Positions 10,074-12,077 of a stretch of 64,000 nt of DNA are shown piece by piece. Below the pieces are notes generated by a model. The model worked only from the letters and a program-made list of their open reading frames with translations, ran no database searches and was not told where the DNA came from. The stretch spans positions 29,915 through 93,914 of the forward strand of contig CAYJIP010000005.1 of assembly GCA_964370265.1 (NCBI GenBank). Reading direction: 5' to 3'. The stretch is from an uncultured Clostridium sp. (GTDB taxonomy: Bacteria > Bacillota > Clostridia > TANB77 > CAG-508). Every line of letters begins with the position of its first letter. Positions within the stretch are counted from its first letter, which is position 1. The position numbers and the translations under genes are program-made.

Positions 10074-10146
10074 TATAACCTGGAATAATAAAGAATATAT
10101 AGACTTAAATGAAAAAACAAAAGAGAAAAGAGAAAAAATTAAAAAT

Positions 10147-10184
10147 AAAAAAGAAACTGAATTTTAAAATTCAGTTTCTTTTTT
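10147..10184. terminator. Bidirectional intrinsic terminator (fabI and convergent orphan gene)
   Basis: Perfect palindrome AAGAAACTGAATTTTAAAATTCAGTTTCTT (10151-10180), flanked by an A-run and a T-run. Confidence 0.85.
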
Positions 10185-10187
10185 ATG

Positions 10188-10258
10188 CTATACACACTAT
10201 TCTATACATACTATTCTATACATACTATTCTAATCATACTATCTTAATCATACCTATT
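10188..10258. repeat. 14-nt tandem repeat, about 5 copies (CTATACATACTATT and variants)
   Basis: Units at 10188, 10202, 10216, 10230 and 10244, degenerating towards the 3' end. Confidence 0.9.
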
Positions 10259-10273
10259 GAGCTAGTAATATTA

Positions 10274-10297
10274 AACTATCAACTATCAACTATAAAC
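10274..10297. repeat. 7-nt tandem repeat AACTATC x3
   Basis: Abuts the stop codon (10299-10301) of the minus-strand orphan gene. Confidence 0.8.
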
Positions 10298-10298
10298 T

Positions 10299-10967
10299 TT
10301 AAACCCTAGTATGAATCTTACTTATTTCTGATTTTAAATTAACTAAAAAATCATTTAAATTGATGTTTTCAATTAAATCATTTTTTGTTATTTGTAAATT
10401 AAAACTACCAAAAGATTCATATAACATACAGGTATTAGTATAATCAGATAAAAAAGTTAGTAATTTAATAATTTTTTTATTAAAGCGATACTCATCTGCA
10501 TGTGTACTTAACTCTATTTTTGAAATAGATGCAAATTTGAGTGAAGATACAGTTTTCTCAGTCAAAAATTCAAGTTGTTGAGAAAAATATTTAATTAGAT
10601 AATGAATTTCGTGAATATTTTTGTATGAAGGTAAAATGCTTTGACTATTAGTAGATAGATTTAAAATTAAAATTAAATTATAGAATTTATTTTCATATTC
10701 CGCAAATTTTGAAAAAAAATCAATATCTGTGAAAAGCAAATTAAATTTATATTTAAAACCAACTTTTTCTAAAAGTGTGATTTTTACAGAATGTAAGTTT
10801 AAAGATTTAAAAGATAGAAGTGTTTGAACTTCTAAGGGTATATTTCTTTTTACATCAGTGAAATAGCATTCATACAAAGATTTAATCCAATTTTGTAGAT
10901 TTGATTCTTGAACATAAATAGTGCACTGCGAAGTAAAAGCATAGGATGACGCTTTGTATTTTTTCAT
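10299..10967 (-). CDS. Orphan hypothetical protein A (222 aa), paralog of the adjacent gene
   Basis: GAGAGG RBS before the ATG at 10967; the track start 11093 would run through the promoter and leader. No known domain recognised. Patchy similarity to 11243-11968. Confidence 0.65.
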   Translation of the reverse strand: MKKYKASSYAFTSQCTIYVQESNLQNWIKSLYECYFTDVKRNIPLEVQTLLSFKSLNLHSVKITLLEKVGFKYKFNLLFTDIDFFSKFAEYENKFYNLILILNLSTNSQSILPSYKNIHEIHYLIKYFSQQLEFLTEKTVSSLKFASISKIELSTHADEYRFNKKIIKLLTFLSDYTNTCMLYESFGSFNLQITKNDLIENINLNDFLVNLKSEISKIHTRV

Positions 10968-11011
10968 ATTTAGACCTCTCTTTAAAAAATATAGTAATAT
11001 TTTAATATATA

Positions 11012-11057
11012 AGAGGTAATGCCCCTCCGATATATCGGAAGGATAATTAAAACCTTC
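11012..11057 (-). promoter_or_regulatory. Structured 5' leader of orphan A containing the conserved palindrome CCTTCCGATATATCGGAGGG
   Basis: GC-rich island in AT-rich DNA. The palindrome at 11023-11042 overlaps hairpin GAAGG/CCTTC (11038-11057) and a weak GAGG/CCTC hairpin (11013-11027). Confidence 0.5.
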
Positions 11058-11064
11058 TTTATAT

Positions 11065-11073
11065 AATATAACA
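11065..11073 (-). promoter_or_regulatory. Extended -10 promoter element of orphan A (TGTTATATT)
   Basis: Minus strand reads TTTTGTGTTATATTATAT, closely resembling the promoter of orphan B. Confidence 0.45.
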
Positions 11074-11162: not shown

Positions 11163-11220
11163 AAAATACAGACTCTAATTAAATGTTAATCTATAACAAC
11201 ATTAAAAGAGTCTGTATTTT
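11163..11220 (-). terminator. Intrinsic terminator of orphan B
   Basis: 14-bp arms AAAATACAGACTCT / AGAGTCTGTATTTT with a structured loop. T-rich tract follows on the minus strand. Confidence 0.75.
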
Positions 11221-11242: not shown

Positions 11243-11968
11243 TTAAACCAAATCTGGGCAAAGGGTTAGTAATTGTATATTCAGTGTAGTTAAACATTTA
11301 CAAATATTTTTTGAATTAATAAATTCTTCTATAGAAAAATTTATCTTAAATTTTTTTCTATTTTTCTTATATGAAAAACTAGAAGTTTTAATATGATGTT
11401 CAAATATTTTTAAAATTTTAATAATCATAATATATTCGGAGTATTTTTCAAAATTAATTTTTTTCAAAGTATCTAGATCACCATAAAAAAGAGTAATTTC
11501 ATCAGAGATTTTGATTTTTAAATTTGAATGATTTGGTAGGTGTTCAATATTTGATTTTGTATCTAATTCAAAATAAAAATAGGTTGATTTTGTGAATTTT
11601 AACTCTTTATATAGTTTTAAAAAACTAGACATCGTATTGAAACATAAATTGAAAATATAATAAGGTTTCCGCTTACCTATTTGAATATATTCAAAACTTT
11701 GAATTGTAGCTCCAGCTAAGCTTAAATTATGTAGTAAAGTGATAACTTTACTTAATTGTTTTTTTTCTATTTGTGCTTTTTCACTAGTTGCATTAATAGT
11801 GTTAAAATGATTTAAGCAATTTTCATACCAATAATTAATTGATTTATTTTGAGCGGTATTTCTAAATCTGCTCGGAATATTTTTTAATATAATAGAGCAA
11901 AAAGTTTTTAGTGAATAATTTAAAGTGTTATTCGGTATTTCTGGTAAAAGTATTTTGTCATTTGTCAT
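11243..11968 (-). CDS. Orphan hypothetical protein B (241 aa), paralog of the adjacent gene
   Basis: GGAGGAAC RBS. No known domain recognised. Shared patches with orphan A (e.g. TLL..SL...FNL.F..F.K; C-terminal F.I..I....N....L..L). Confidence 0.7.
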   Translation of the reverse strand: MTNDKILLPEIPNNTLNYSLKTFCSIILKNIPSRFRNTAQNKSINYWYENCLNHFNTINATSEKAQIEKKQLSKVITLLHNLSLAGATIQSFEYIQIGKRKPYYIFNLCFNTMSSFLKLYKELKFTKSTYFYFELDTKSNIEHLPNHSNLKIKISDEITLFYGDLDTLKKINFEKYSEYIMIIKILKIFEHHIKTSSFSYKKNRKKFKINFSIEEFINSKNICKCLTTLNIQLLTLCPDLV

Positions 11969-12013
11969 AAAGTTCCTCCATAAAATTAATAATGTAAATA
12001 ATAAAATAATAAT

Positions 12014-12058
12014 CCGGAAGAATTAAACCTTCCGAATTATCGAAAGGTTATATAACCT
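12014..12058 (-). promoter_or_regulatory. Structured 5' leader of orphan B containing the conserved palindrome CCTTTCGATAATTCGGAAGG
   Basis: Three overlapping hairpins: 12045-12058 (AGGTTATATAACCT), 12026-12049 (10-bp stem, one mismatch) and 12015-12034 (CGGAAG/CTTCCG). Confidence 0.5.
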
Positions 12059-12068
12059 AATTTCATAT

Positions 12069-12077
12069 ATTATATCA
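12069..12077 (-). promoter_or_regulatory. Extended -10 promoter element of orphan B (TGATATAAT)
   Basis: Minus strand reads TTGTGATATAATATATG. The -35 is weak (TTTGTT). Confidence 0.5.

Follow-up and report, generated by a model that had tools for sequence, protein, structure and literature searches.

The two near-identical palindromes upstream of the adjacent orphan genes A and B form helix P1 within a conserved element, about 100 nt long, of the 5' UTR, and are not a DNA operator. Besides the hairpin that was first reported, the element has three further helices that interlock with it, and the series ends at the ribosome-binding site. Comparison of related leaders and folding models suggest that the leader is a cis-acting, two-state RNA that regulates translation through masking or release of the Shine-Dalgarno (SD) sequence, a reading to which we assign a probability of roughly three in four. 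That the trigger is kinetic and free of any ligand is a further prediction of the same models, and one that we consider quite possible though far from assured.

The earlier note had placed two palindromes on the minus strand of the window (the whole 64-kb stretch of DNA that was analysed), and two near-identical 20-mers were found there, CCTTCCGATATATCGGAGGG in leader A (11042-11023) and CCTTTCGATAATTCGGAAGG in leader B (12047-12028). The degenerate form of the palindrome pattern had no matches in 100 dinucleotide-preserving shuffles of the window. The statement that no other copy is present in the 64 kb was borne out, and a genome-wide pattern check found that the motif is not common at random positions; the 1.52-Mb genome (26% G+C) holds just these two sites, with one mismatch allowed. 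No extra half-sites were found genome-wide, where single 8-nt arms are scattered with 1-8 occurrences each. Each palindrome begins 21-22 nt past an extended -10 element (TGnTATAAT/TATATT type). The dyad arms were confirmed, but neither copy is a perfect palindrome as DNA, since one position per copy pairs solely as a G.U wobble in the minus-strand RNA. The description of the palindromes as the only GC-rich islands in their leaders did not hold, as further G+C-containing segments flank each of them on both sides. To the 5' side lie GAAGG (leader A) and UAGG (leader B), complementary to the palindrome's 5' arm, and to the 3' side lie the CU-rich sequences CCUCUU (leader A) and CUUCCGGA (leader B), complementary to both the 3' arm and the SD.

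Together these sequences make up a chain of five segments that are alternately purine- and pyrimidine-rich: seg0 (AAAGG), seg1 (CCUUUCGA), seg2 (UCGGAGGG, a decoy SD), seg3 (CCUCCGA, an anti-SD) and the SD itself (AGGAGG). Each segment is complementary to its neighbors, and therefore only two global folds are possible. In the P0+P2 fold, seg0 pairs with seg1 and seg2 with seg3, which locks the anti-SD away and leaves the SD free. In the P1+P3 fold, seg1 pairs with seg2 and seg3 pairs with the SD, which is masked.

All five segments are present in both window leaders, on the minus strand. In leader A, the extended -10 promoter element TGTTATATT (11065..11073, with the hexamer TATATT at 11070-11065) was assigned from the sequence and the family alignment, and the match to the covariance model R2, described below, begins at this element. 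Downstream of it, seg0 (GAAGGU; 11052..11057) is the predicted 5' end of the transcript and forms P0 with the 5' part of seg1; this GAAGG:CCUUC pairing co-varies with the AAAGG:CCUUU of other members. The 5' arm of the palindrome is seg1, UCCUUCCGA (11035..11043), which forms P1 at a predicted -12.6 kcal/mol, and the 3' arm is the decoy SD seg2, UCGGAGGGG (11022..11030), which can pair with seg1 (P1) or with seg3 (P2). The anti-SD seg3, UUACCUCUUA (11010..11019), is degenerate in this copy (CCUCUU), so that P2 is weak at -9.4 kcal/mol, and its duplex with the SD (P3) is predicted at -9.8 kcal/mol. The predicted SD region, AGAGAGGUCU (10972..10981; ATG at 10967-10965), is paired with seg3 in both the predicted minimum free energy (MFE) and centroid structures, and the masked fold of copy A is predicted to be favored by 3.9 kcal/mol.

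Leader B has the same order of features. Its extended -10 promoter element, TGATATAAT (12069..12077), was assigned from the sequence, the family alignment and the R2 match, and is followed by seg0 (UUAGGU; 12055..12060), which forms P0 with seg1. The palindrome's 5' arm, seg1 ACCUUUCGA (12040..12048), forms P1 at -12.1 kcal/mol, and its 3' arm, the decoy SD seg2 UCGGAAGGU (12027..12035), pairs with seg1 or seg3. The anti-SD seg3, AUUCUUCCGGAUUAUU (12008..12023), can form either a 14-bp P2 with seg2 (-17.0 kcal/mol) or P3 with the predicted SD region AUGGAGGAAC (11972..11981; ATG at 11968-11966). Copy B is predicted to be near balance, with P0+P2 at -23.9 versus P1+P3 at -23.1 kcal/mol. The -35 regions of both A and B are weaker than the family norm.

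The cargo of leader A is orphan gene A (222 aa; 10299..10967, minus strand) and that of leader B is orphan gene B (241 aa; 11243..11968, minus strand), and neither belongs to a family. No match to either protein was found in Pfam, NCBIfam, PADLOC or PHROGs, no homologue was found in 60 related species, and both came out as singletons in a set of 5.8 billion proteins. Codon usage in frame is better than in the other two frames for both, so A and B look coding, with a usage that is atypical for the genome (8th-14th percentile, 22% G+C). The two proteins show a weak colinear similarity to each other, with a local alignment equalled by 71 of 2000 shuffles (p about 0.035). Single-sequence AlphaFold2 models of A and B were unusable (pLDDT 44-46). 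Past the stop codon of B, a long-loop hairpin (11163-11220, minus strand; AAAATACAGACTCT...AGAGTCTGTATTTT, loop of about 30 nt) followed by ATTTTA is probably the terminator of B, and A and B are therefore separate transcription units. The length of the loop caused the terminator scan to overlook this hairpin. A terminator-like hairpin past gene A (10145..10186, minus strand), flagged by the terminator scan, is common to the convergent fabI gene. Between the stop codon of A and this hairpin (10188-10297), a 14-mer (TAGAATAGTATGTA-like) occurs about five times and GATAGTT three times, in tandem.

Both genes lie antisense between fabI and recJ. In four relatives the fabI-recJ gap measures only 170-360 nt. 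In the closest relative (G006; L048 494-1384) it holds an unrelated gene for a PD-(D/E)XK transposase-like nuclease (PDDEXK_2, PF12784, E = 2.7e-46). The gap is a variable slot, a hot spot of gene gain and loss, and provides no conserved leader.

A genus-wide search with the palindrome pattern matched 10 genomes, versus 10 for the reversed control, a result that resembles chance. Inspection of the context showed that two of the ten were real homologues with the whole architecture of the window leaders. A covariance model built from these two leaders and the two of the window (R1) matched 49 of the 338 genomes of the genus, and 25 of the 27 non-seed loci inspected had the same layout as the window leaders. 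To remove circularity, a second model (R2) was built from 27 non-window leaders. When R2 was run on the window and its genome, leader B ranked first (41.7 bits, E = 9e-7) and leader A second (36.9 bits, E = 9e-6), and the next best match scored 25.4; the window copies are among the most divergent members of the leader family. Across the genus, R2 finds the element in 58 of 338 species (E <= 0.001), or about one in six, and it is single-copy everywhere except in the window's genome and one other.

Outside the genus, R1 found the complete element in two further genera of the same family, and the order-level search gave no convincing members elsewhere in the order. A three-segment DNA pattern, run against species-representative genomes, gave 14 real matches as well as 37 chance matches in G+C-rich genomes; the 14 all come from metagenome-assembled genomes (MAGs) of uncultured gut Clostridia with 26-31% G+C (e.g., Clostridium sp. 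CAG:389). Rfam 15 had no match in the window leaders (E <= 10) or in 16 typical loci (E <= 1), and no description of the family was found in the literature searched. The leader is thus an uncatalogued RNA family of uncultured gut Clostridia, and a variant of known SD-masking leaders. A survey of stable hairpins across the genome's 707 long upstream regions told little, since most of these hairpins are terminators of the preceding gene. In another family of the order, one locus (L148 in G506, about 1501-1600) reads GCTCTCAAAATTTTGGGGGC-GA-CGCCCCC...AGGAGG-ATG behind a TGATATACT promoter. A wobble-containing first helix and a Watson-Crick second helix share a strand there, which is the same logic in other letters, and the locus could be a distant relative or a convergent design.

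The layout shared by those 25 inspected loci is as follows. A -35 element (TTGAAA or TTGCAA) and an extended -10 (TGnTATAAT, in 27 of 29 members) are followed after 7-12 nt by seg0, AAAGG(U/C). Then come seg1, (G)CCUUUCGR, an A/U loop, seg2, YCGGAGGG(C), a spacer of 2-18 nt and seg3, CCUCCGR, and 7-71 nt past seg3 lies AGGAGG and then ATG. The element is placed between a promoter close to consensus and the start codon, and every member inspected points toward an open reading frame (ORF) with a strong SD. A sub-class of leaders (L107, L111, L132 and L138, and also L126 and L139) has an extra AUUCC...GGAAU hairpin directly 5' of seg1.

To count pairs, the five segments of 29 leaders were placed in a common register, with the cores joined by artificial linkers. 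The register of seg0, seg3 and the SD was set by complementarity, so that the counts given here lean toward pairing, which the shuffle and slide controls correct partly, and the 29 sequences are related, so that the shuffle counts overstate independence. On this footing, 90.5% of cells are paired in the P1+P3 fold (slid controls, 37-59%) and 10 of its 17 pairs are changed on both sides; its covariation is 0.276 versus 0.161 when shuffled, and none of 500 shuffles reached as high. The P0+P2 fold gave nearly the same result, with 90.6% of cells paired (slid controls, 31-61%), 11 of 15 pairs changed on both sides, and a covariation of 0.261 versus 0.147 when shuffled (0 of 500 as high). Among the single helices of the 29 leaders, P1 has 96.6% of its cells paired, about 23% of cells being G.U pairs that would be mismatches in DNA or in antisense RNA. 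In P2, seven of nine pairs are changed on both sides. P3 has 83.6% of cells paired, and its five core pairs are nearly invariant while its outer pairs co-vary.

Changes in one segment are followed along the chain. Seg1, seg2 and seg3 co-vary as a triple, reading CGG/CCG/CCGG in L066, L067 and L071, UUGA/UCAA/UUGA in L077, and UCAA/UUGG/CCAA in L091. The outer seg3:SD pairs co-vary as GCCUCC:GGAGGC, UACCUCC:GGAGGUA and AGUUCUCC:GGAGAGCU, and P0 changes as GAAGG:CCUUC, AAAGG:CCUUU and GAAGAC:GUCUUC. Two positions of P1 carry a U.G pair, one in 26 and the other in 23 of the 29 leaders. These conserved wobbles let the same U pair with an A of seg0 and the same G pair with a C of seg3, and such dual use of the U and G residues is a signature of a bistable RNA. 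At the level of sequence comparison, these data show that both pairings of the segment chain ending at the SD are under selection.

The earlier note had read the palindrome either as a repressor operator immediately past the transcription start or as an RNA stem-loop to which a protein binds, and had suggested that covariation in orthologous leaders would tell them apart. Orthologs of the orphan genes do not exist, and the test therefore succeeded only through the leaders found by the RNA model. In those 29 leaders P1 is kept by compensatory and wobble changes, which supports the stem-loop and not the operator. Neither the length nor the sequence of the loop is conserved, so that recognition by a protein is not indicated, nor is it needed. 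An operator at which a dimeric repressor stops RNA polymerase immediately past the start of transcription would account for a dyad with 8-bp arms and a 4-bp center, at about +15 to +35, that is common to two adjacent promoters. As DNA, however, the two window copies contain one mismatch each and the arms of most family members match at only six of eight positions, and the mismatched positions are those that pair solely as G.U in the sense-strand RNA (26 of 29 and 23 of 29 leaders). The arm letters are not fixed, and co-vary with each other as well as with the third segment and the SD. There is also no other genomic site or half-site cluster, and no regulator gene is adjacent, the neighbors being fabI and recJ. 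The mismatches at the DNA level, the lack of another site and the lack of a regulator gene lead us to reject the operator reading as extremely improbable.

The nearest-neighbor energies and findpath barriers given here are rough estimates, and they point to a change of fold as the transcript grows. The masked P1+P3 fold is predicted to be favored in 25 of 29 full-length leaders (median +3.6 kcal/mol), and P0+P2 in 24 of 29 nascent RNAs that end after seg3 (median -3.1). In growing-chain MFE predictions, 18 of 29 leaders pass from P1 to P0+P2 and then to P1+P3, and six more pass from P0+P2 to P3. The direct path from the open to the masked fold has a predicted median barrier of 14.5 kcal/mol.

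These estimates are consistent with a two-state RNA whose trigger would be kinetic. The nascent RNA would fold into P0+P2 before the SD is synthesized, so that ribosomes could load on fresh transcripts. Transcripts left idle would then cross a sizeable barrier to reach P1+P3, the more stable fold, in which the SD would be masked, the message untranslatable and the 5' end left unpaired. P1, the palindrome first reported, would drive this shut-off, because it takes seg2 from seg3 and thereby frees seg3 to mask the SD. In the window's genome, copy A would be biased to the masked fold and copy B would remain near balance. The kinetic model offers no explanation for the 4 of 29 leaders that favor the open fold at equilibrium, nor for the terminator-like P2 of copy B.

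The terminator-like P2 of copy B bears on another reading, transcription attenuation, in which P2 would be an intrinsic terminator and P1 the antiterminator. The terminator scan flagged the P2 of leader B, a 14-bp stem with UUAUUUUAU behind it, and also a weak 5-bp version in leader A. Across the family, however, this feature is not kept: leader B alone among the 29 has at least six U residues in the 9 nt that come behind P2, against a mean of 2.1, and most of the tails are A-rich. Moreover, seg3 co-varies with the SD, which would not be required of a terminator arm. We therefore consider attenuation very unlikely.

A shift of the balance between masked and open folds with temperature would make the leader an RNA thermometer. 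Gut bacteria that move between hosts could use a temperature cue, and the SD is masked by pairing, as such a device would need. The predicted energy difference between the folds is nearly flat from 20 to 50 C, however (median 4.0 to 3.1 kcal/mol), with the open fold predicted for 4-6 of 29 leaders throughout that range, and the architecture of the leader is far more elaborate than that of known thermometers. On these predictions we consider a thermometer, too, very unlikely.

The two-state RNA could instead be flipped by a trans-acting factor (an RNA-binding protein, a small RNA or a metabolite) that stabilizes one of its folds. The leader offers the two conserved folds, close in energy, that such a switch would need, and 7 of 29 leaders are predicted to lie within 2 kcal/mol of balance. 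Translational riboswitches resemble the leader in having an expression platform of SD, anti-SD and anti-anti-SD sequences; they differ from it in that the leader lacks an aptamer domain and has neither conserved junction nor conserved loop nucleotides, and it has no match in Rfam 15, a negative that covers the window leaders and the 16 typical loci. The P0 loop varies from 4 to 13 nt, the P1 loop from 3 to 7 nt and the seg2-seg3 spacer from 2 to 18 nt, and their sequences vary too, so there are no conserved unpaired nucleotides for a ligand or a specific protein. In addition, no conserved regulator gene lies nearby, and the diversity of cargo among members speaks against autoregulation through the encoded protein. 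We regard control by such a factor as rather unlikely, though as an alternative it deserves to be taken seriously.

The layout of four complementary segments also resembles that of the ermC leader, in which 1:2 and 3:4 pairing masks the SD and 2:3 pairing frees it. There, a ribosome stalled on a leader peptide opens 1:2, and by analogy a ribosome stalled on a short upstream ORF (uORF) could open P1 here. Some members do have an ATG 5-13 nt past the decoy SD (e.g., L068, which encodes MPPRKNN*). Such an ATG is found, however, in only 6 of 29 members and in neither window leader, and a start codon before or overlapping seg1 in none of the 29; the leaders have no ORF equivalent to the ermC leader peptide. 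It is extremely doubtful that this mechanism operates here. In L068, L070, L072, L080 and L086, the ATG just 5' of seg3 opens tiny uORFs or frames that run into the main ORF, and it might add a ribosome-dependent layer in those species.

Having no aptamer, leader peptide or conserved loop, the two-state leader is left with folding kinetics or ribosome capture as its likely trigger. Its closest counterpart in mechanism is the leader of the maturation (A-protein) gene of Levivirus phages such as MS2; for MS2, experiments support a kinetic control of translation that involves an upstream complementary sequence, a long-distance interaction and a metastable hairpin (PMC4615214). In the stable final fold of MS2 the upstream complementary sequence pairs with the SD, as seg3 does in P3. 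During synthesis a metastable hairpin sequesters that sequence so that ribosomes load on fresh RNA only, and its predicted counterpart here is P2. Covariation shows both the transient and the final structure to be conserved in MS2 and in the present leader alike, and the control needs no ligand in MS2 and would need none here. The two leaders share no sequence homology, so the likeness is one of mechanistic class and not of a homology family. MS2 is a phage RNA genome made by a replicase, whereas the present leader is part of a chromosomal mRNA made by RNA polymerase from a sigma-A-type promoter. The leader also has two extra helices, P1, which takes up the released strand, and P0, which caps the 5' end. 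Its final fold consists of two hairpin-type helices where that of MS2 is a cloverleaf, and its kinetics are predicted.

The mRNAs of hok-type systems also have metastable hairpins that sequester the SD. The same is true of the Helicobacter pylori type I toxin mRNA aapA3 (PMC6733600). These mRNAs resemble the present leader in that successive, mutually exclusive local helices of SD-like and anti-SD-like segments time translation during transcription. Their logic is the opposite, however, since there the transient hairpins keep the nascent RNA from being translated until later processing activates it. They also involve an antisense RNA and a small hydrophobic toxin, neither of which applies to the leader described here.

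The element precedes at least six unrelated families of small proteins. In most species it lies directly past holA and a gene for a SleB-type cell-wall hydrolase, and its main cargo is an uncharacterized protein of about 100 aa or a tandem two-domain form of about 215 aa (207-231 aa). In the ORFs of L064-L091, this cargo has the core 'NNEISKKL...IIP...INWD...H..VW..L..YC', with invariant Pro, His and Trp and a near-invariant C-terminal Cys. No match to it was found in Pfam or the PDB, and it is named nowhere beyond 'hypothetical protein'. It forms about 36 clusters among 5.8 billion proteins, nearly all of them from metagenome assemblies. The other cargo comprises a family of 92-98 aa, CxxCxGxG zinc-ribbon-like proteins of 53-78 aa, a 'MSASYRI' family, the protein of L090, and orphans A and B. 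Within the sub-class that has the extra hairpin, L107, L111, L132 and L138 drive CxxCxGxG proteins (about 70-78 aa), and L126 and L139 precede a 'MSASYRI' protein. The CxxCxGxG protein of L111, the one that was scanned, resembles the central domain of DnaJ and Anti-TRAP, at scores below the Pfam cut-offs (E = 7e-6 and 6e-5, respectively). At L090, a T-box-like match (105-284; 54.9 bits, below the gathering score of 93) is located on the other strand, about 1.2 kb away from the element. The holA-sleB site is not universal, since at L064 in G033 the element is immediately preceded by a tmRNA gene (1595-1951; 178 bits).

The main cargo family is absent from the window's genome, and a profile comparison of A and B with that family found no similarity. 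At the canonical site of this genome (C1:199372-199860) there are a terminator, AAAATAAAATTAAATATAAAGC-type tandem repeats and an assembly gap of 100 N, in which a copy is possibly hidden. The cassette is present in this genome at a different place, twice, and with novel cargo, so that both site and cargo are unusual. The leader may be a cellular, MS2-like, ligand-free and self-timed switch combined with a strong promoter, forming a portable cassette that gut Clostridia would reuse for many unrelated small genes, often orphans; we put this forward more tentatively than the kinetic trigger itself.

Leaders that hide the SD are a known form of control. What is new here is an uncatalogued family in which both of two exclusive folds are conserved with covariation, and this makes the family a clean natural example of a bistable RNA. 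Experimental support for a mechanism based on folding kinetics or ribosome capture comes mainly from phage MS2 and toxin mRNAs. As a self-contained element of about 100 nt, the leader could serve as a compact part for synthetic biology. The presence of a promoter-plus-leader unit before unrelated small families, including orphans, offers a handle on how new or fast-evolving genes gain regulated expression. If the broader reading, of a self-timed cassette, is true, a purely kinetic RNA timer would give bacteria in general a means of tying protein output to active transcription or to the supply of ribosomes.
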